UHGV virus genome: UHGV-2134446
Length of the DNA: 41,941 bases
DNA from: a virus
Reading direction: 5' to 3' (one strand)
Shown: in pieces, positions 1-6,843 of the stretch
How positions within the stretch are numbered: the first letter of the stretch is position 1
Layout of the letters: every line of letters starts with the position of its first letter
Translations under genes and position numbers: made by a program
Notes under the pieces: generated by a model
Seen by the model: only the letters and a program-made list of their open reading frames with translations
The model's database searches: none
Told to the model about the DNA's origin: nothing

Positions 1-135
1 TTTTTCAAGGCGCACGTTTGCTAAATCACCGTTGACCCATCTATCTAATTCCAACTTACTCTTGTTAAGATTCCATTTCATGAAGAGTATTTGTTCTTCT
101 AAGTCTTGGTAGTTTTTAAGCCATTGAAATCTCAC
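1..135 (-). CDS. N-terminal part of ArpU/RinA-like late transcriptional activator (continues in frame at 41941..41606)
   Basis: GTG 135..133 preceded by SD-like aaaggggtgg; frame stays open to a codon boundary exactly at position 1; translation VRFQWLKNYQDLEEQILFMKWNLNKSKLELDRWVNGDLANVRLEK. Confidence 0.5.
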   Translation of the reverse strand, partial: MRFQWLKNYQDLEEQILFMKWNLNKSKLELDRWVNGDLANVRLEK

Positions 136-316
136 AAACGCCACCCCTTTATGGTAAAATAGTCTTGTCACAGGTCACTTACCCAAAAGGTAGTGGCTTT
201 TTTATTTATCAAAATGTGAGCCATGTTGATGTTCTTCATCAATGATCAAACTCTTCAATGTCTTACCAAGAACTTTTTTATTTATGGTTCCGTTCGCCTT
301 GGCTTTTTCTAGTAAC

Positions 317-454
317 TTACGCTTCTTCTTTTTTACTTTCGATTTTTTCTTTGGCAATGGCTTGCTTCTCCTTTTCATCTAATTCTTTACCGAAAATCAC
401 ACTTGCGAATACTGTGGCAAAAAGTACCACGGCTACTAACACTGCAAAGTCCAT
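317..454 (-). CDS. Small single-TM membrane protein (45 aa), not in ORF track
   Basis: ATG 454..452 preceded by AGGAGG-ataa; translation MDFAVLVAVVLFATVFASVIFGKELDEKEKQAIAKEKIESKKEEA. Confidence 0.45.
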   Translation of the reverse strand: MDFAVLVAVVLFATVFASVIFGKELDEKEKQAIAKEKIESKKEEA

Positions 455-457
455 CAT

Positions 458-667
458 TTATCCTCCTGCTTCCATCGCATCCCTGACTAGCGGATCATTG
501 ATAATAATCTTGTACTTTATCTGCTCATACTGCAGTTGCTGTTCTAGCTTCACGATCTGCTTTTGCTGGTCAATTATTGTATAGGATAGCCAACTTAGGC
601 CTGCGATTGTCAGCAGTATTATGATGATTGAGTGGCTAGTTTTCATTGGCTTGCACCACAACGCCAT
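458..667 (-). CDS. Small membrane/coiled-coil protein (69 aa)
   Basis: ORF with hydrophobic segment IIIILLTIAGLSWLSYTII followed by Q/K-rich helix; co-oriented with early operon. Confidence 0.4.
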   Translation of the reverse strand: MALWCKPMKTSHSIIIILLTIAGLSWLSYTIIDQQKQIVKLEQQLQYEQIKYKIIINDPLVRDAMEAGG

Positions 668-1094
668 CAGATGTGCTAAAGTATTCTTTTTCTAACAATT
701 TTTGATGTTGATAAATATTTCCTACTACCTCTATTCTGCTTCTAGCACCCATCAAATCTGTATCATAAATATGCTTGCCTTTGATTCTATACGCCCCGTT
801 ATCCATTCGGTATGCTTGTACATAGCTATGCCAGTAAGTATCACTGTAATTAACGGATGAACTTGTATGCAAAAGAACATCCCCCTCGAAAATTTCCACG
901 CCGTTCTTGTCTTTTAAACCAGTGGATTGCATGAGGAATGAATCAGTTGCTGGAAAAGTATGATCTTCTGGATAATCTCCGCTTACATCAAGTATGTTTA
1001 TACCGTCATCATCTAACTCAAAACAAACGCCTTCTGTACTTGGATAAATCATTCTGTCATTTTCTTTATCCCAACATCTAAATTTTGGTTCCAT
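636..1094 (-). CDS. YopX-family phage protein (start at internal ATG 1094, SD GGAGGG)
   Basis: MEPKFRCWDKENDRMIY..., KDKNGVEIFEGDVL..., IEVVGNIYQHQKLL match YopX family hallmarks; the longer ORF-track N-terminus lacks an SD. Confidence 0.75.
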   Translation of the reverse strand: MEPKFRCWDKENDRMIYPSTEGVCFELDDDGINILDVSGDYPEDHTFPATDSFLMQSTGLKDKNGVEIFEGDVLLHTSSSVNYSDTYWHSYVQAYRMDNGAYRIKGKHIYDTDLMGARSRIEVVGNIYQHQKLLEKEYFSTSDGVVVQANEN

Positions 1095-1106
1095 CTTATC
1101 CCTCCA

Positions 1107-1138
1107 TTCATGATATAATCGCCATAGGAGGCGATCAT
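1107..1138 (+). promoter_or_regulatory. Copy 1 of duplicated 44-bp module: extended -10 TGATATAAT (1111-1119) plus hairpin aTCGCC-atagga-GGCGAt holding SD AGGAGG
   Basis: Near-identical to 1826..1858; perfect extended -10 and perfect SD 8 nt before ATG 1139. Confidence 0.5.
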
Positions 1139-1228
1139 ATGAAAAATAAAACATTCAGAAATGTAATTATTTTTATATTAGGTATTCTTGCTGGTATTCT
1201 ATTGAGTTCTATATTCAGATTTTTTTGA
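1139..1228 (+). CDS. Tiny hydrophobic peptide (29 aa) MKNKTFRNVIIFILGILAGILLSSIFRFF
   Basis: ATG 8 nt after AGGAGG, single predicted TM helix, antisense to flanking early genes. Confidence 0.45.
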   Translation: MKNKTFRNVIIFILGILAGILLSSIFRFF

Positions 1229-1248
1229 TTTCAAACCCTTTACAATAA

Positions 1249-1812
1249 TTAATTATCTACTCCTCTATCGCAATTGTTAGTGGATTTCATCACTGTTCCG
1301 TTAACAATTTTTGCAAAGGCTTCTGCTATTTCGATGTCATTGAAGGTAGTTGCCTCTATTCGGTTTTCTGTAAAACTGGCAAGCCAGTTATTCCGTTTTG
1401 CGGCTCCACTTATAGATATATCTTCCAAAAAAGTATTCTCTGTTTGCGATGCTACATAATAGACTGTATCTTTTTCGATTTCATACCCAAATAGCTTCAT
1501 TCTTACCAATGTTTCAATTGGATAATTAGTGGTGTCGACAAGCCAATCTTGAAAATCATCTCTCTCTTCTCTGCCCACTTTGAAAGCTTCTGTTAAAGCA
1601 CCGCTAAGGTCCCAATCTAACTCCTCGAATAAGCCCTCTTCGAACCAATCCGCTACAAACTGTGGAACAATTTCTTTTGACTGTTCAAATGCTTTTTCCA
1701 CACAACTTATGGCAATTCTTAGCCCTTCATTGATGCCTCCAGTGTATTCAGACTCAATTCGATCCTTAATTTGATTTTGCTTTATTTTTTCAATCAATTC
1801 TTGTTTCATCAA
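1249..1812 (-). CDS. Hypothetical early protein (187 aa, acidic)
   Basis: Long ORF with SD GGAGGGG before ATG 1812. Confidence 0.6.
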   Translation of the reverse strand: MMKQELIEKIKQNQIKDRIESEYTGGINEGLRIAISCVEKAFEQSKEIVPQFVADWFEEGLFEELDWDLSGALTEAFKVGREERDDFQDWLVDTTNYPIETLVRMKLFGYEIEKDTVYYVASQTENTFLEDISISGAAKRNNWLASFTENRIEATTFNDIEIAEAFAKIVNGTVMKSTNNCDRGVDN

Positions 1813-1825
1813 AATTATCCCCTCC

Positions 1826-1858
1826 GTTCATGATATAATCGCCATAGGAGGCGATCGT
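1826..1858 (+). promoter_or_regulatory. Copy 2 of duplicated module: extended -10 TGATATAAT (1831-1839) plus SD-containing hairpin
   Basis: Same 44-bp sequence as at 1101-1144 with 2 substitutions. Confidence 0.5.
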
Positions 1859-1996
1859 ATGAAATTTCATAATTATAATGATGCAGATAAAACTTACCTT
1901 GGTATAGCTGTAGCTTTTTTTATACTAGGACTAGGCTCAAAGTTCTATTGGATTCCAGCTGTTTTATTTTTATTAGTTGCTTTCCTAAAAGATTAG
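1859..1996 (+). CDS. Small hydrophobic peptide (45 aa) MKFHNYNDADKTYLGIAVAFFILGLGSKFYWIPAVLFLLVAFLKD
   Basis: ATG 8 nt after AGGAGG; one or two TM segments; followed by intrinsic terminator. Confidence 0.5.
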   Translation: MKFHNYNDADKTYLGIAVAFFILGLGSKFYWIPAVLFLLVAFLKD

Positions 1997-2017
1997 ATAC
2001 TTAGGTATCTTTTTTTC
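1995..2017 (+). terminator. Rho-independent terminator (agatac-ttag-gtatct then T7)
   Basis: Perfect 6-bp stem followed by ttttttt directly after stop of the 45-aa peptide ORF. Confidence 0.6.
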
Positions 2018-2160
2018 GTTATCGCTGACTATTCTTTACTGTGTTTAATGAAATGACAATTCACTTTATTTACCGTTTCTAGCGCTAATTATTTACCAAG
2101 TTATTTCATTATGCTATCCTTAATTCAACATAAAAGCTTTTATATGAGGAGAATAAACTT

Positions 2161-2634
2161 ATGAAAAAGTCATTTTTTATTTTAGGCTGTGTTCTGGTAC
2201 TATCTGGATGTTCTAACAAAACGTCCGTCAGCACTGCTTCCGATTCGTCTGATACTTTAAAAACATCTTCGACAACAATGGTTTCTTCTGCAACAGAATC
2301 ACACGAAAATACTACTGAAGATTCTCTCGATAAATATCAATCCATATCGGAATCACAAGATAACACTCTAGAAAGTAGTTTTATTGAAAACTCTAGCAAC
2401 CAAGAAACTTCAGTCCCTATGACAAATAAAGAAGATGAATACTATCAACAAATTAAAGATGCTTGGCAAAAAGAGAAAGATTATATAGACTCTGTCACTG
2501 ACCCAAAAGTAAAACAATCTTTACAAACTCCTTTTGCTGCTGCTAATGCCAAAGCAACTGAATTGGTAATGAATAATCCATCAGATGAAACAATTATTAT
2601 GAACGCTTTGAAAAAAGTTGTAGATGATCAATAA
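2161..2634 (+). CDS. Secreted lipoprotein (157 aa), lipobox LSGC, Ser/Thr-rich linker
   Basis: MKKSFFILGCVLVLSGCSNK signal peptide with lipobox; SD gaggag; opposite strand to surrounding early genes. Confidence 0.8.
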   Translation: MKKSFFILGCVLVLSGCSNKTSVSTASDSSDTLKTSSTTMVSSATESHENTTEDSLDKYQSISESQDNTLESSFIENSSNQETSVPMTNKEDEYYQQIKDAWQKEKDYIDSVTDPKVKQSLQTPFAAANAKATELVMNNPSDETIIMNALKKVVDDQ

Positions 2635-2660
2635 CGTTGTAAATAGTCCTTATGAAACTT

Positions 2661-2688
2661 AAACTAGTTTTCGAACTAGTTTTTTTAT
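2661..2688 (+). terminator. Rho-independent terminator (palindromic aactagtt stem, ttcg loop, T-run)
   Basis: aaactagttttcgaactagttttttt immediately after the lipoprotein stop. Confidence 0.7.
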
Positions 2689-2704
2689 TTCGTCGGATAG
2701 TGGA

Positions 2705-2884
2705 CTAGTAAACACCAACTGCTTTTCCATAGCAGTAGCGATCACATGCTCCATTCATCATCTGCCATTTGTTGTTGTAATCTAATTTATCGCTACAATT
2801 CAAACAGTACATTTTCCCATCGGCACTATACCCTGCTTTGATTAACCATTTCTTAGCAAGCTTCTTTTTTTGTCTTTTGTTCAC
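2705..2884 (-). CDS. Possible small Cys-rich protein (59 aa, GTG start overlapping upstream stop as GTGA)
   Basis: Open frame VNKRQKKKLAKKWLIKAGYSADGKMYCLNCSDKLDYNNKWQMMNGACDRYCYGKAVGVY; start/stop overlap suggests coupling but no clear SD. Confidence 0.2.
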   Translation of the reverse strand: MNKRQKKKLAKKWLIKAGYSADGKMYCLNCSDKLDYNNKWQMMNGACDRYCYGKAVGVY

Positions 2885-3099
2885 TCGATCTTACCTTCCA
2901 ATCTAACTGCCAGCGTCCTAGCTCTTTGTGATGTTGCCTTTTTTAGTCGACTTATGTCATCAACTGCTTGACGCTCATTCCAGTATTCTTGTGCAAGCTT
3001 TTTATCTGAGAATTCTGGCACATTTCCATGCCATTTTTTGAAATAAACTTTTTTAAATGACTGGTCAGTTAAATCAAATAGATGGAAAGCTATTCTCAT
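2881..3099 (-). CDS. Hypothetical early protein (72 aa)
   Basis: ORF in early operon orientation. Confidence 0.45.
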   Translation of the reverse strand: MRIAFHLFDLTDQSFKKVYFKKWHGNVPEFSDKKLAQEYWNERQAVDDISRLKKATSQRARTLAVRLEGKIE

Positions 3100-3127
3100 A
3101 TCATTCCCTCCTAGTTGTTTATATCTG

Positions 3128-3424
3128 TCACTTACTTCTTTCTTTTGCTATCCCCATATCAATGATTTGCTTAAAAAGATCCCACTCTTCAAATGTCATA
3201 GAAATATCATGCTGCTTAATAGCGTGCTGATCCACCGTTGTGAAATAAATGAAGCCTGTGCCTACATCCGCAAACAATTCATGTGTGTCGTTGGTATGAT
3301 TATCGACAACAGTCAAATCTTTAACGTCCGCTGATAATGCCATTTCTTTCCATCCTCCTGTTCCGTTATCTCTTCCAATTACTGACTCAGTCCACCTGCT
3401 CAAATAAAATGGCGTAATCATCAA
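3128..3424 (-). CDS. Hypothetical early protein (98 aa)
   Basis: ORF in early operon orientation. Confidence 0.5.
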   Translation of the reverse strand: MMITPFYLSRWTESVIGRDNGTGGWKEMALSADVKDLTVVDNHTNDTHELFADVGTGFIYFTTVDQHAIKQHDISMTFEEWDLFKQIIDMGIAKERSK

Positions 3425-3584
3425 TATCTAAATTTCCAGCAATCTCCTGTATTTTTTTCAAAGTAACATTTGCTGTTTTATTTTTAGCCGCTTTTGCATT
3501 TCCGCCCATCAATTCAGCAATCTTAATATTTTTATTTTCTGCATGCCAATGAACGTTTGTCCAAAATACTTCGAGAATGTCCAT
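3387..3584 (-). CDS. Hypothetical early protein (start moved to ATG 3584 with SD aaggagtgggg)
   Basis: Internal Met MDILEVFWTNVHWH... has a good SD; longer ORF-track start lacks one. Confidence 0.45.
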   Translation of the reverse strand: MDILEVFWTNVHWHAENKNIKIAELMGGNAKAAKNKTANVTLKKIQEIAGNLDIDDYAILFEQVD

Positions 3585-3717
3585 TTCCCCACTCCTTCGT
3601 TTCTTTACGAACAGCAACACCATCTTTATTACAGACCGGACAGTTGATTGCTACTGCCCGGCCAAACATATCTTTTCCCCAAATAATCCTTTCGCCTTTA
3701 CATCGATTGCATTTCAT
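3532..3717 (-). CDS. Small C4 zinc-ribbon protein (61 aa)
   Basis: CNRC...CPVC motif. Confidence 0.5.
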   Translation of the reverse strand: MKCNRCKGERIIWGKDMFGRAVAINCPVCNKDGVAVRKETKEWGNGHSRSILDKRSLACRK

Positions 3718-3725
3718 GGGATCAC

Positions 3726-3929
3726 CTACTTAATCTTGTTATTTTCCAACAAGTTAAGGTACAATAAACCAACATCGATCAATTTCTCATTCATGATTTG
3801 AGCAACTTCGCTAGGCTTAAACCCTTTAACAAAGAGATCTTTTGCTTGGTTAATAACGCCAACGCTCCAATAGAATTTTGCATCTTCCAGAATAATTATT
3901 TTGCCGTCACTCTTCCCCATCCGAATCAC
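3726..3929 (-). CDS. Hypothetical early protein (67 aa)
   Basis: ORF in early operon. Confidence 0.45.
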   Translation of the reverse strand: MIRMGKSDGKIIILEDAKFYWSVGVINQAKDLFVKGFKPSEVAQIMNEKLIDVGLLYLNLLENNKIK

Positions 3930-4503
3930 CTGATAATTCTTTGAAGATCACTTCATCTTTTTTCTTGCTCCAAGTATCAGCGAATGGTGCGAAGTACTGA
4001 CGAGAGATCTCAATCTGATCAATCAATGCATCTTCAGACATTTCATAAACAGCAGCTACTTCGGTAATTTTCTCGCCTTCTTCAATTTGAATTAATACAT
4101 CACGAGGATTGATTGTGATGCTGTCTGGTAACGGCAATGAGGTAGCGGTTTTGATGAATTCATCAATGGTTTCTTTGGAAACTTGAATCTCAACCATTTC
4201 AATTTCTTCGACACCATCACCAACATCTAATGAAGTTTGTTCTTCTTTCAAGACTTCAATTGTTCCATCGCTATTTACTGCATAATTGACGTTCGGACGT
4301 TTAGTCTGTTTATTGATAGGAAGCGTGTAGCCGACTGTTTCAGGTTGGATCGTAACTGATACCGTCTTGCCTAAAAAGTCGCTCAGATCGTCATAGCGGC
4401 CTTTCAGTGATCCATTGTTTACCACTAGTAGCACTTCTACATTTCCGTTAGATTTTGATGTAGCCTTTTTTACCTCTGGTCGAAAGTTTACTTGTTTAGT
4501 CAT
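3907..4503 (-). CDS. Hypothetical acidic early protein (198 aa)
   Basis: Long ORF, acidic C-terminal tail SGDSDGEE. Confidence 0.55.
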   Translation of the reverse strand: MTKQVNFRPEVKKATSKSNGNVEVLLVVNNGSLKGRYDDLSDFLGKTVSVTIQPETVGYTLPINKQTKRPNVNYAVNSDGTIEVLKEEQTSLDVGDGVEEIEMVEIQVSKETIDEFIKTATSLPLPDSITINPRDVLIQIEEGEKITEVAAVYEMSEDALIDQIEISRQYFAPFADTWSKKKDEVIFKELSGDSDGEE

Positions 4504-4840
4504 TTTTGTTTTCCTCCAATTTGTTTTTTATTAAGACAAAGTAACGTCCTTTGCTGTCTTTGATTCCTGATTTAAGTCTGCATGTCACTTCATACTTCGA
4601 TATGTCACAAAACTCCGCTACGGCTCTCTTATTGCCCTCAAAAGCGATTTTGTTATCTTCTATGACTTGGATTCTTAAACCTTTACGCCCTGATTTTGTG
4701 ACAGCTGTTTCACTTCTGAGTCGTTTCAATTCTTGCTGTACTACTTTATTGGTCTCAAAGTCGTCACGCTCGGCAAGGTAAACCATTCGGGCAAGTCTGG
4801 CACGCTTTAGCGCTCGCCGTCCTTGTTTACTTGTAACCAT
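4496..4840 (-). CDS. Hypothetical basic protein (114 aa), possibly DNA-binding
   Basis: Arg/Lys-rich N-terminus RRALKRARLARMVYLAERDD. Confidence 0.5.
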   Translation of the reverse strand: MVTSKQGRRALKRARLARMVYLAERDDFETNKVVQQELKRLRSETAVTKSGRKGLRIQVIEDNKIAFEGNKRAVAEFCDISKYEVTCRLKSGIKDSKGRYFVLIKNKLEENKND

Positions 4841-4850
4841 ATAAGCCCAC

Positions 4851-5339
4851 CTATCTTTCGATAATCGAATTGCGTTTATCTTTTAGTCGTTCCAGCTGAT
4901 ATTCAAGTGATTTGATTTCACTATCTACTTGATAAAGCTGCCGCTCTTTATCTGGTGATGCTGTTTTTTTAACAAAATATTTCGGATATTTTCTGCCGCC
5001 CGAATCACATGCAACACAAAATCGATCATCGTTTAAATATTCCTGATAGGTGGTTTGATCCACTTCCCGAACATCGCTATAATCAAAAATCAGCGTAAAG
5101 TCATTGATGTTTTCATTGTCCAGGACGTATGAAATACTGTCCTGATAACTTTTATAATAGCTATCAACCAGCATTATTTTGTTTTCGCTGATCCGAGGAA
5201 CGAACGTCCAATTCGTACACCAATAAGGATCGGAACTGCCCCCTCGACGTGTTCTTTCGTCAATCTCTCTTGCGTACAGTCCGGTAGGGATAATCTTTAA
5301 CCTGTTTTCTGCTGATAACATTTTCGCCCTCCTTGTCAT
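4851..5339 (-). CDS. Hypothetical early protein (162 aa)
   Basis: Long ORF, tightly packed with neighbours. Confidence 0.55.
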   Translation of the reverse strand: MTRRAKMLSAENRLKIIPTGLYAREIDERTRRGGSSDPYWCTNWTFVPRISENKIMLVDSYYKSYQDSISYVLDNENINDFTLIFDYSDVREVDQTTYQEYLNDDRFCVACDSGGRKYPKYFVKKTASPDKERQLYQVDSEIKSLEYQLERLKDKRNSIIER

Positions 5340-6003: not shown

Positions 6004-6843
6004 CTACACCGCCCTTAATCGTTTATCTGCTGTAGTTACGAACTTAAATGCGAATCCTTTTGAATTTTTGAATAATCGAGATACTATTCTTTCTCCATAT
6101 GCGTTCTTCATTTCTTTTCCAGTCAAATTTGTAGTTAAAATGATCGCCTGATTTTGACGAGCTTCTAAAATTGAGTTCAATGTGTCATTATTAAAATTCG
6201 TACTACTGCTATAGGTAGTTCCTCCTAGTTCAGACCCCAAATCATCGATCACCACAAGATCGGCTGTTTTAATGTCTTTCATAAGTGAACCTTGAATTTC
6301 CTTTCTCAATTGCTCGTCATTGAATGAATACTTGATTTGCTCCAACAATTCACGATAGCTAATAAACAGACATTTTTTGTCGTAATCTGACCGTTTAATA
6401 ATTTCCCAAGTAGCAGCCATGGCTAGATGACTTTTACCGCTACCTGGCTTTCCATTCAAGGCAAGGTGTTTGGGTTCACCACTCAGTACAGCTTCTACAA
6501 AACTTTTCGCGATATTAACAGCAGTCTCTGTTTCCACATCAATAATTTTGTAATTATCAAAAGAACAGTCAAACAAAGATTTGTCGGTAATCACTGAACC
6601 AAATTTAAAGAAATTGAGTGTTTTGCTTTTTAAACTATCGTTGTAGATCCGTTCGGTTTCTCGATCTTCTTTTCGCTGCATATCATAGTAACCGCAAGCC
6701 ATACAAAGTGGCGCACATCGGTCGGAACCGTCTTTGTTCTTCGCTTTGTACCCGTATAGCGGTTGTTGACATTTTGGACACTCGCCACTTACCACTAATA
6801 CCTTGTCAATTAAAGATTTCATTTCAACTGCTAGGCTCTTCAT
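6004..6843 (-). CDS. DnaC/IstB-like AAA+ helicase loader with N-terminal zinc finger
   Basis: Walker A GKPGSGKSHLAMA, Walker B VVIDDLG, N-terminal CPKC...CMAC. Confidence 0.8.
   Translation of the reverse strand: MKSLAVEMKSLIDKVLVVSGECPKCQQPLYGYKAKNKDGSDRCAPLCMACGYYDMQRKEDRETERIYNDSLKSKTLNFFKFGSVITDKSLFDCSFDNYKIIDVETETAVNIAKSFVEAVLSGEPKHLALNGKPGSGKSHLAMAATWEIIKRSDYDKKCLFISYRELLEQIKYSFNDEQLRKEIQGSLMKDIKTADLVVIDDLGSELGGTTYSSSTNFNNDTLNSILEARQNQAIILTTNLTGKEMKNAYGERIVSRLFKNSKGFAFKFVTTADKRLRAV

Follow-up and report, generated by a model that had tools for sequence, protein, structure and literature searches.

The closest described relatives of the locus reported here are the morons of the HK97 gp15 type, in the definition given by Cumby, Davidson and Maxwell (2012, PMC3594210), who cite Juhala et al. 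(2000) for it, and the promoter-early stem-loop (PeSL) elements, which T4-type phages carry as mobile regulatory cassettes (Arbiol et al. 2010, PMC2839356; Comeau et al. 2014, PMC4122927). Two further systems have to be considered, namely the type I toxin-antitoxin systems of Firmicutes, such as Fst/par, bsrG/SR4, txpA/RatA and yonT/SR6 (reviewed in PMC8309996), and the excludons, a concept from Listeria for divergent or convergent transcription units that overlap (PMC4179725, PMC3377988).

We analysed a repeated module in the early region of a temperate phage, UHGV virus genome UHGV-2134446, whose whole analysed stretch of 41,941 nucleotides is called the window below. The unit that begins with this module resembles a moron in being a putative independent transcription unit, with a predicted promoter and usually a predicted terminator of its own, between the genes of a phage operon, and in being present or absent at the same position among related phages, as seen in matched filled and empty linkers; its GC content is below that of its neighbours, the proteins it carries are small and in many cases membrane proteins, and it would be expected to be expressed from the repressed prophage. 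It differs from morons in that its ends are standardised and common to unrelated cargos, with one conserved linker as the landing site, and in that it runs against the operon and gives a Shine-Dalgarno (SD) sequence to the neighbour gene on the other strand.

Similar to PeSLs, the module combines a predicted sigma-70-type promoter, an SD, a start codon and a stem-loop that overlaps the -10 box or comes just behind it; small variable ORFans are found beside it, and between close relatives it coincides with points of indel or replacement. In the window a gene stands between two direct copies, and it is from such an arrangement that PeSL mini-circles arise. Unlike PeSLs, which occur in about 50 copies, concentrated in hyperplastic regions, in lytic T4-like myoviruses, it is found in one to three copies per genome in temperate Gram-positive siphophages, has no -35 box and no terminator features in its stem-loop, lies antisense to the surrounding operon and has a separate conserved 3' end. 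For lambdoid phages, it has also reportedly been suggested that linker or boundary sequences at gene junctions direct mosaic exchange. The linker described here is likewise a short conserved intergenic sequence that occurs between different gene pairs and coincides with mosaic joints, but it is in addition the place where an antisense expression cassette lands.

We propose that the repeat is the constant front of a moron-type, PeSL-like accessory-gene cassette which is exchanged by recombination at its conserved ends, and we put the probability of this reading at about 65%.

Layout of the locus

The features of the locus are as follows (position 1 is the first letter of the window).

636-1094, minus strand: YopX-family early gene, left of cassette 1 (Pfam YopX, E=3e-22; ATG at 1094-1092)
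1100-1105, minus strand: SD GGAGGG of the YopX gene, read from the sequence; left linker end, common to empty and filled sites
1100-1144, plus strand: module copy 1 (repeat search; 45 copies are 93-97% identical)
1111-1119, plus strand: predicted extended -10 TGaTATAAT without a -35 box, read from the sequence; invariant in the free scan
1118-1135, no strand assigned: palindrome ATCGCC-ATAGGA-GGCGAT, with an imperfect extension to 1113-1140 (folds); invariant when left free
1126-1131, plus strand: SD AGGAGG of the 29-aa ORF (sequence, folds); in the early mRNA it reads CCUCCU, an anti-SD
1139-1228, plus strand: cargo C, single-TM peptide of 29 aa, MKNKTFRNVIIFILGILAGILLSSIFRFF (ORF list)
1229-1279, plus strand: 3' tail of cassette 1, without a terminator; remnant of the right flank, TATCGC, at 1266-1271
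1249-1809, minus strand: DUF1642-family early gene between both cassettes (Pfam DUF1642, E=4e-15)
1819-1825, minus strand: SD GGAGGGG of the DUF1642-family gene, read from the sequence
1820-1864, plus strand: module copy 2 (extended -10 at 1831-1839, palindrome core at 1838-1855, SD at 1846-1851, ATG at 1859)
1859-1996, plus strand: cargo B, 45-aa peptide with two predicted hydrophobic helices (ORF list, AF2 model)
1995-2016, plus strand: weak putative intrinsic terminator AGATAC-TTAG-GTATCT followed by a T-run (folds)
2015-2032, no strand assigned: truncated right linker flank, with TATCGCTGAC at 2020-2029; the rest is replaced by a lipoprotein-gene region

A sequence-only reading of this stretch had described a 44-bp repeat at this place. 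Repeat search in the window confirmed it as a direct repeat of 45 nt (1100-1144 and 1820-1864), the copies being 720 bp apart and identical in 43/45 positions (96%); its 30-nt core has exactly two matches in the window, even with three mismatches allowed, and none in 100 dinucleotide shuffles. The same reading assigned to the minus strand of the repeat the SDs of the two flanking early genes, correctly according to the sequence and the ORF list: the YopX ATG (1094) has GGAGGG 5 nt in front of it, and for the DUF1642-family gene the distance is 9 nt from the ATG (1809) or 6 nt from the TTG at 1812.

The plus strand of the phage carries an XRE repressor, an ImmA-like peptidase and an integrase; the minus strand carries Cro-like, RecT, PD-(D/E)XK exonuclease and DnaC-like genes, YopX and further early genes. 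The cassettes have the orientation of the repressor and integrase genes, opposite to all lytic genes. Control of the cassette by the repressor through shared operators was considered and rejected: the three copies of the switch operators, TATAGAAAACTATA, are unrelated to the module palindrome, and for this reason such control is not predicted. GC content is 0.28-0.33 across 1100-1300 and 1800-2200 compared with about 0.38-0.42 in the flanking genes, a modest difference.

Promoter, palindrome and leader

In every copy the module has the same order, TGATATAAT, the 6-bp palindrome, AGGAGG, 7 nt and ATGAAA. The extended -10 TGaTATAAT that had been noticed at 1111-1119 and 1831-1839 is perfect, and it is invariant in 45/45 copies. 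No -35 box was found at the module, and the promoter prediction is a match to the extended -10 consensus without a -35 box, where a simple consensus promoter scan makes no call. The SD and start codon were also correctly read, AGGAGG at 1126-1131 and 1846-1851 being followed after a 7-nt spacer by ATG at 1139 and 1859, respectively.

The hairpin of the sequence-only reading is present but longer than was described, with a core of ATCGCC-N6-GGCGAT (1118-1135 and 1838-1855), and as an imperfect palindrome it reaches about 11 bp and takes in the -10 box itself. Neither strand has a U-run after the palindrome, and the sequence of the module palindrome shows none of the terminator or attenuator features expected of a PeSL stem-loop.

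Transcription normally starts 5-9 nt past the -10 hexamer. The 5' arm of the hairpin (1118-1123) is directly behind this hexamer (1114-1119) and should therefore fall outside the cassette mRNA. Folding of the two leaders from the predicted starts at 1126 and 1846 gave no significant structure (z -1.23 and +0.56, respectively). The suggestion of a leader that occludes the SD is not supported, as a transcript from about 1126 or 1846, which was the earlier reader's own estimate, is without the 5' arm and its folds are not significant; a structure that masks the ribosome-binding site (RBS), as in toxin mRNAs, is likewise not seen in arm position or leader folds. Nor would the peptide mRNAs start antisense to the initiation regions of the early genes, as had been claimed: because the predicted start is about 20 nt to the right of the left neighbour's SD and is directed away from it, there should be no overlap between the two. 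What is supported is a compact plus-strand module of predicted promoter, SD and start codon, antisense inside the early operon; a plus-strand ORF follows immediately in 45/45 copies.

In the minus-strand RNA the palindrome forms an 11-bp stem of -22.1 kcal/mol (z -3.2, 0/200 shuffles), and it more probably acts on the early mRNA or as DNA. These folds are where an excludon-like mutual antisense switch comes into consideration, as an addition to the moron-type reading and not as its replacement. The units on opposite strands overlap, as in excludons, so that expression of one can exclude the other. In the lysogen, the cassette transcripts, chiefly the unterminated one of the 29-aa peptide running across the DUF1642-family gene, would damp leaky early expression; after induction, strong early transcription would collide with the cassette promoter, pair with the cassette mRNAs and silence them, and CCUCC in the early mRNA, the complement of the cassette SD, could occlude GGAGG of the downstream early gene. 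The convergent, overlapping orientation and the missing terminator of the 29-aa cassette are consistent with this, and in filled linkers the minus-strand RNA folds either into the 11-bp hairpin or into CCUCC:GGAGG pairing over the early SD (-15 to -22 kcal/mol, z -1 to -3.2), while empty linkers have z about 0. The case is purely structural, however; the fold of the commonest variant has a modest z (-0.95 to -1.97), complementarity of CCUCC and GGAGG is an automatic by-product of two opposed SDs, the near-invariant module offers no covariation, and the predicted cassette mRNA does not overlap the initiation region of the left neighbour. In described excludons the regulator is a long antisense 5' or 3' UTR, whereas here the effect would follow from geometry only. 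We regard such a switch as a possible but rather unlikely addition.

A bolder version, which we hold to be distinctly unlikely, would make the module a two-faced portable lysis/lysogeny toggle, with initiation regions on both strands and mutually complementary SDs. In the lysogen the membrane peptides would then be expressed as new exclusion or host-modulating factors; on induction the early transcript would silence them, and the choice between hairpin and CCUCC:GGAGG pairing would tune translation of the downstream early gene. Linker and cassette together would in that version be a standardised plug-in socket for accessory genes of Gram-positive temperate phages.

The two peptides

Both peptide ORFs (29 aa, 1139-1228; 45 aa, 1859-1996) had been correctly delimited, and the description of both products as single-TM peptides fits the first but not the second, for which the AF2 model (pLDDT 79) predicts two hydrophobic helices, at residues 3-28 and 31-44. 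The 29-aa peptide (cargo C) is found in six copies with 4 variable sites, all synonymous in its frame and none (0) synonymous in the other two frames. The 45-aa peptide (cargo B), found in ten copies, has 5 distinct sequences of the same length; of the changes among them, 7 are synonymous and 11 conservative. Judged from sequence, both peptide ORFs evolve as coding sequence. The 45-aa peptide is an annotated CDS in phage EG-TP1, and it is always the sole plus-strand gene of the early operon, across phages with differing replication and packaging modules.

Folding gave no terminator after the 29-aa ORF; the tail of this cassette (1229-1279) is now within the 3' end of the DUF1642-family ORF, and an intact tail ending in CTCCTCTATCGCTGACGATTGCGGAAT is present in other copies of cargo C. 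As to the clean terminator that had been assigned to the second ORF, a hairpin and U-run are plausible there but weak, with a 6-bp stem containing 2 G-C pairs and about -8 kcal/mol.

Searches of Pfam, NCBIfam, PHROGs and PADLOC with both peptides and with the third cargo (cargo A, below) returned nothing significant, the best family match being Prli42 with 13 bits against a cut-off of 27.5, and Rfam over positions 1-5000 gave nothing relevant at permissive thresholds. Homologue searches with the 45-aa peptide and with the 86-aa cargo A retrieved only few clusters, from the same Enterococcus group.

The sequence-only reading had seen in this arrangement the hallmark of type I toxin-antitoxin systems, that is, of membrane toxins under antisense control whose translation is curbed by a structured leader and an antisense RNA. 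The peptides do share with such toxins that they are short (both <60 aa), hydrophobic, under purifying selection, carried by a prophage and, as predicted here, overlapped by antisense transcription, from an operon that would give a transcript complementary to them over their full length; Firmicutes do have systems of this type on prophages (PMC8309996), and weak promoter-like hexamers are found on the minus strand 3' of each ORF (2059-2031 and 1280-1252). These hexamers, however, are wholly or partly in flank specific to the window and are absent elsewhere, and promoter-like sites are not enriched (15 found compared with 15.4 expected from shuffles); among the module copies neither a promoter nor a terminator from which an antitoxin RNA could be made is conserved on the minus strand. 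No toxin family or antitoxin RNA was matched in Pfam, NCBIfam, PHROG, PADLOC or Rfam, and a dedicated antitoxin sRNA gene, a long structured 5' UTR and family homology, which the known systems have, are not seen here. The hairpin arm left untranscribed and the unstructured leader described above point in the same direction. The sole antisense partner is the early mRNA, made in lytic growth and absent in the lysogen, which is the reverse of the behaviour required of an antitoxin. Finally, in 29/45 copies the module would drive an acidic soluble protein, its commonest cargo. With these results the toxin-antitoxin interpretation becomes improbable.

Cassettes and empty linkers in related phages

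It had been proposed to look for the module in related phages, and we found 45 copies in phages and prophages of the E. casseliflavus/gallinarum group. Of these, 2 are those of the window, named phages account for 3 and IMG/VR for 23, and a further 4 come from genomes and 13 from metagenomes. Genomes related to the window, which itself has two copies, carry one to three, and linkers number one or two per early region; E. casseliflavus NBRC 100478 has three copies of the module. The arrangement had been called not an ordinary feature of phage early regions; according to our analysis the module belongs to a population-wide cassette in a widespread linker.

Behind the module are three unrelated kinds of cargo, all beginning with ATGAAA: A in 29/45 copies, B in 10/45 and C in 6/45. 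Cargo A is an acidic soluble protein of 86 aa without a sequence match in PDB, whose AF2 model of moderate quality (pLDDT 69) has no Foldseek match in PDB. At the end of most cassettes are a predicted terminator on the plus strand and another conserved sequence, TATCGCTGACGATTGCGGAAT. The plus-strand form of the terminator is the more stable one in 13/15 variants of cargo A and 3/4 variants of cargo B; that of cargo A has a 10-11 bp stem and U6 (about -13 kcal/mol), and that of cargo B a 6-bp stem with a U-run (-7 to -8 kcal/mol).

The full right flank TATCGCTGACGATTGCGGAAT is present in 61 viral contigs. In about 48 cases the linker is empty, a sequence of about 45 nt in which CCCTCC is directly joined to TATCGCTGACGATTGCGGAAT, with a 7-nt spacer. 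In one matched pair (L017 filled, L165 empty) the neighbours are the same and the insert is the only difference; in two contigs near-identical to the window (L015 and L079) cargo A stands where the window has B. Filled sites lie between at least 29 gene pairs and empty ones between at least 36, and the same neighbour genes are met both filled and empty. Other plus-strand inserts, for instance a PBECR4 nuclease gene, share the right junction. It was considered whether a linker stands at every early gene junction; this was rejected, a profile search finding one or two in each region and, in the window, no more than a remnant. The empty linker as a structured RNA element was rejected as well (fold z about 0).

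Conservation is concentrated in the ends. The module is 95% identical (93-97%) among the 45 copies, the cargo 67% and the left neighbour 61%; variable columns of the module are confined to gaps between the functional elements, the constant region stops exactly after ATG-AAA, and the -10 box and the stem showed no variation when each was left free in scans of the collections, which returned the same sequence only. This near-invariance could reflect recent spread and not selection.

The moron-type reading starts from the constant ends with three interchangeable cargos, the linker that occurs both empty and filled between the same and different gene pairs, the conservation of the ends, far better than that of cargo or neighbouring genes, and the coding-type evolution of both peptide ORFs.

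The same comparison bears on the idea that only the minus strand matters, the repeat being either a linker for recombination or, in the early mRNA, a hairpin with an RBS, and the plus-strand promoter and ORFs being incidental. The sequence-only reading had named a conserved module-exchange linker on the minus strand as its own counter-scenario, and this is in part what we see in the widespread linker. A linker found cassette-free at about 48 sites includes the left third of the repeat, and it is for the minus strand that the strongest structure is predicted. But wherever the remainder of the module occurs, a plus-strand ORF comes behind it, the constant region terminates exactly behind ATG-AAA, the ORFs show frame-specific synonymous change, U-run terminators are on the plus strand, and the empty linker serves the early genes without a hairpin or any significant fold. 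We find this idea very hard to maintain.

Equally little can be said for an autonomous ultra-small mobile element, inserted site-specifically by an enzyme acting in trans and not by general homologous recombination. The sharp constant ends in many gene contexts would suit it, as would ATCGC, which is present in the left junction (TAATCGCC) and again in the right one (TTATCGCT), but only once in the empty site. A target-site duplication was nevertheless rejected on the matched pair L017/L165, the 7-nt spacer being replaced and not duplicated; terminal inverted repeats were not found, and the cassette is without a recombinase gene. Exchange of cargo with both ends kept fits homologous exchange, and the phage encodes RecT and an exonuclease.

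On the moron-type reading the cassette, with a predicted extended -10 sigma-A promoter without -35, a small ORF beginning with ATG-AAA and usually a predicted plus-strand terminator, sits in a conserved intergenic linker of about 45 nt in the early lytic operon of temperate siphophages of the E. casseliflavus/gallinarum group. Host RNA polymerase would transcribe it from the repressed prophage, starting about 7 nt past the -10 at the consensus SD, and the membrane peptides may be accessory factors expressed by the lysogen, for instance in superinfection exclusion or membrane modulation. Spread and cargo swap may proceed by homologous recombination over the conserved ends of about 20-45 nt, probably assisted by the phage's own RecT and exonuclease. 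Insertion would leave the early gene with an RBS, because the left end retains the GGAGGG that it needs. Against this reading counts that the linker is found only once or twice per early region, which limits PeSL-style shuffling within a genome; the terminator stem of cargo A, with its upstream A-tract, might also attenuate early transcription and so make the insertion costly.

If the proposal is true, the linker of the early operon is a socket and the promoter/RBS/start module with its standard tail a plug, by which unrelated small genes are swapped through short-homology recombination while the downstream early gene retains its RBS, and the PeSL idea of T4 would hold, in antisense orientation, for temperate siphophages as well. 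The three lineage-specific and evidently selected small proteins, two membrane peptides and one acidic protein, are good candidates for phenotypes that prophages confer on E. casseliflavus and E. gallinarum, both of them commensals of the gut and opportunists. For the engineering of Enterococcus, the promoter/RBS core of only 34 nt would be a candidate expression element of very compact size. The TGATATAAT-N6-AGGAGG-N7-ATGAAA geometry also occurs at 75 unrelated Firmicutes loci, as found in a genome scan with both stem arms left free, which returned these 75 unrelated promoters and only 4 true module copies.

Results

A repeat search found a single pair of 45-nt direct repeats in the window, 43/45 identical and 720 bp apart, and the 30-nt core of this module has exactly two matches when up to three mismatches are allowed and none in 100 shuffles. 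The sequence-only reading, which had described a duplicated repeat with its -10 element, palindrome, SD, ORFs and minus-strand SDs, is confirmed here by the sequence, the repeat search and the ORF list.

Features of the window (module elements from the sequence; peptide ORFs from the ORF list; YopX and DUF1642 genes from the ORF list and family matches)
1100-1144 and 1820-1864, plus: module copies 1 and 2, each with CCCTCC as first element
1111-1119 and 1831-1839, plus: TGaTATAAT (predicted extended -10)
1118-1135 and 1838-1855, read on plus: palindrome ATCGCC-ATAGGA-GGCGAT, containing the SD AGGAGG, after which come a 7-nt spacer and ATG-AAA
1139-1228, plus: 29-aa ORF, opened by the ATG of copy 1
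1859-1996, plus: 45-aa ORF, opened by the ATG of copy 2
636-1094, minus: YopX-family gene
1249-1809, minus: DUF1642-family gene
11514-11825, plus: XRE-type repressor
plus: ImmA-like peptidase
13314-14468, plus: integrase
minus: Cro-like gene, RecT, PD-(D/E)XK exonuclease, DnaC-like loader, DUF1064 and further early genes, along with the DUF1642-family gene and YopX
minus: late genes, after the early genes in order
17827-18612, minus: endolysin (Amidase_5)

Because of this strand layout both peptide ORFs are co-oriented with the lysogeny genes and opposed to all lytic transcription. The complement of CCCTCC gives a minus-strand GGAGGG 5 nt upstream of the YopX-family ATG and a second one 9 nt upstream of the DUF1642-family ATG. 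The promoter claimed earlier stands as far as TGaTATAAT is present in both copies, but there is no -35 box at either and a consensus promoter scan calls nothing there. The 45-aa peptide, formerly taken to cross the membrane once, has two predicted hydrophobic helices, and the terminator of its gene, formerly called clean, is weak (a 6-bp stem with two G-C pairs and a U-run, about -8 kcal/mol); folding gives no terminator after the 29-aa ORF.

The nearest records to the window are the temperate Enterococcus gallinarum phages EG-TP1 and phiEG37K. It had been proposed to look for the same module in related phages, and a total of 45 copies came from three named phages and from scanning viral, genome and metagenome collections; among species-representative genomes true copies occur only in E. 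entomosocium and E. casseliflavus NBRC 100478, the latter with three, of which two show the same 720-bp spacing as the pair in the window. In 45/45 copies ATGAAA leads into an ORF of one of just three unrelated kinds: an acidic, soluble protein of 85-88 aa (cargo A, 29/45, some decayed), the 45-aa peptide (cargo B, 10/45) or the 29-aa peptide (cargo C, 6/45). A hairpin with a U-run is usually present 3' of the ORF in cargo A and B cassettes, and in most cassettes the far end is formed by another conserved sequence, (C/T)TATCGCTGACGATTGCGGAAT, that extends as far as the stop codon of the following minus-strand gene. In two phages almost identical to the window, L015 and the E. casseliflavus phage L079, cargo A sits exactly at the position of cargo B. 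The cassette has, then, constant ends and three interchangeable cargos. Gene maps of eight contigs always present the 45-aa gene as the sole plus-strand gene of an otherwise minus-strand early operon, and the phages concerned differ in replication and packaging modules.

In L007, L158 and L165 cargo A has decayed (9 codons lost in frame, reduction to 42 aa, a frameshift) below a module that is intact each time, and the cargo is therefore dispensable, at least in some hosts. At L005 (355-600), L015 (reverse strand, 6540-6795) and about 12 other loci the cargo A ORF is followed by a common ORF-free stretch of ~250 nt with two terminator-like hairpins upstream of the right flank (CCAGCAAC...GTTGTTGG and CCAGTACC...GGTGCTGG, each with a T-run), which may represent one or two small RNA genes. 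In phage EG-TP1 (L001) an unannotated 60-aa ORF with two hydrophobic segments (2985-3167, plus) is located 3' of the 45-aa cassette, and TCATGATATTTATAA upstream of it resembles a degenerate form of the module's TCATGATATAAT.

The 3' flank occurs on its own in 61 viral contigs, and in ~48 sites it is joined directly to CCCTCC, forming an empty linker that reads on the minus strand TAA-TTCCGCAATCGTCAGCGATA-(GCAAACA or AATGAA[T/C])-GGAGGG-ATAAG-ATG. At least 36 different gene pairs enclose an empty linker and at least 29 a filled one, with the same neighbour genes seen in both states; filled L017 and empty L165 share their neighbours on both sides, a 7-nt spacer is replaced by the insert and no target-site duplication is found at the insertion. 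Within the conserved linker the cassette is thus polymorphic for presence and absence. That the repeat is simply a minus-strand linker, the possibility left beside the promoter reading, is true of its left third, since empty linkers carry CCCTCC, but the other two thirds are found in cassettes only.

A profile search finds no intact linker in the window: the right flank of cassette 2 breaks off at 2029, at the start of a lipoprotein-gene region, and that of cassette 1 has become part of the DUF1642-family ORF at its 3' end. The lipoprotein gene, a third plus-strand gene (2161-2634) directly after cassette 2, encodes 157 aa (MKKSFFILGCVLVLSGC..., LPAM_1 match) with weak N-terminal similarity (E=0.005) to the PHROG 'Cor superinfection exclusion protein'; its terminator at ~2655-2690 (AAACTAGTT-TTCG-AACTAGTTT, then a T-run) is a good one. 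Its insertion cut off the right flank of the linker, and together with the two peptide genes it makes up a small antisense accessory-gene island.

Other plus-strand inserts at the same right junction include an ORF-free stretch with two terminator-like hairpins and a PBECR4-family nuclease gene. The latter (183 aa, Pfam E=6e-11) lies in the IMG/VR contigs L112 (8145-8694) and L127 (3173-3723), where the insert ends in a terminator and CCGT-TATCGCTGACGATTGCGGAAT, as the cassettes do; the GC-rich region of ~100 nt upstream of the gene is apparently structured and has no match in Rfam.

Between cassettes the module is 93-97% identical, as against 67% for cargo genes and 61% for left neighbours, and its variable columns fall only between functional elements. 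No variants were recovered with the -10 box or the stem left out of the search pattern, and this invariance ruled out a covariation test. Four sites vary in the 29-aa ORF, every one of them synonymous in the coding frame and none in either of the other two frames, and the 45-aa ORF keeps frame and length through 7 synonymous and 11 conservative changes; judged by these substitutions, both peptide ORFs are shown to be under coding-type constraint. The cassette terminators fold more stably on the plus strand in 13/15 variants of cargo A and 3/4 of cargo B. The geometry TGATATAAT-N6-AGGAGG-N7-ATGAAA is found in 75 unrelated Firmicutes loci (genome contigs, L026-L104), with less than one locus expected by chance according to our own base-composition estimate, and this excess suggests a recurrent working promoter/RBS design with the SD at or near the mRNA 5' end.

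Discussion

The feature is best read as a standardised antisense-oriented moron cassette of PeSL-like architecture, placed in a conserved linker of E. casseliflavus/gallinarum-group phages, and the interpretation offered earlier is partly supported. As a moron (defined in PMC3594210), it would be transcribed independently, from its own promoter to its own terminator, would spread horizontally and would be expressed from the prophage. Exchange would proceed by short-homology recombination at the conserved cassette ends, plausibly aided by the phage RecT and exonuclease, and the left end would keep the SD of the neighbouring early gene; during lytic growth convergent early transcription would probably override the cassette. 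Its interest, which we rate as moderate, lies in what it adds to phage genome evolution and in the three small proteins that it supplies, none with an assigned function.

An SD-occluding hairpin in the peptide leaders had also been suggested. The 5' arm of the palindrome shares its first two bases with the end of the -10 hexamer, and transcription by bacterial RNA polymerase normally begins 5-9 nt beyond that hexamer, which puts the predicted mRNA start at the SD, about 1125-1127 or 1845-1847; the cassette mRNA should therefore be without the 5' arm, and leaders folded from these starts are unremarkable (z +0.56 and -1.23). In the minus-strand early mRNA the palindrome of copy 1 extends to 11 bp (-22.1 kcal/mol, z -3.2, 0/200 shuffles). 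The commoner variant folds by pairing of CCUCC, which is complementary to the cassette SD, with the GGAGG that serves the early gene downstream (-15 to -17 kcal/mol, z -1 to -2). Empty linkers give no significant fold. The palindrome most probably works at the level of the early mRNA or of the DNA itself, and not on the peptide mRNA.

By analogy, the closest architecture is that of the PeSL cassettes of T4-type phages, in which promoter, SD and start codon come together with a stem-loop that overlaps the -10 box or lies close to it, and which flank ORFans and mediate shuffling (PMC2839356; PMC4122927). Our cassette differs from them in copy number and in a stem-loop that lacks terminator features, both of which fall outside the PeSL definition, and in being antisense to the operon around it.

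The antisense hydrophobic peptides had been read as the hallmark of type I toxin-antitoxin systems, which by definition need a small antisense RNA antitoxin and whose toxin mRNA often sequesters its RBS (PMC8309996). The peptides may have membrane-damaging activity, but no toxin-family or RNA-family match was obtained in Pfam, NCBIfam, PHROG, PADLOC or Rfam, the minus-strand promoter-like hexamers beside the ORFs belong to flanking sequence found only in the window and lack conservation, the occluding hairpin should be absent from the mRNA, and most module copies carry the soluble acidic protein. Moreover, only the early transcript could serve as antisense RNA, and it is missing from the lysogen, the very state in which an antitoxin would have to act. 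These points argue against a toxin-antitoxin pair.

Three TATAGAAAACTATA-type repeats (11294-11311, 11434-11451 and 11467-11484) in the 220 bp that separate the Cro-like gene from the repressor gene are probably operators of the lysogeny switch; sequence comparison found the palindrome unrelated to them. Just downstream of YopX, minus-strand ORFs at 317-457 (46 aa) and 458-667 (69 aa) each have a hydrophobic segment, and small membrane proteins are therefore encoded by the early operon as well. A block of plus-strand ORFs at 14795-17815, including a DUF6941 protein (16558-16971), lies between integrase and endolysin, a site typical of lysogenic-conversion or defence genes beside the attachment site.
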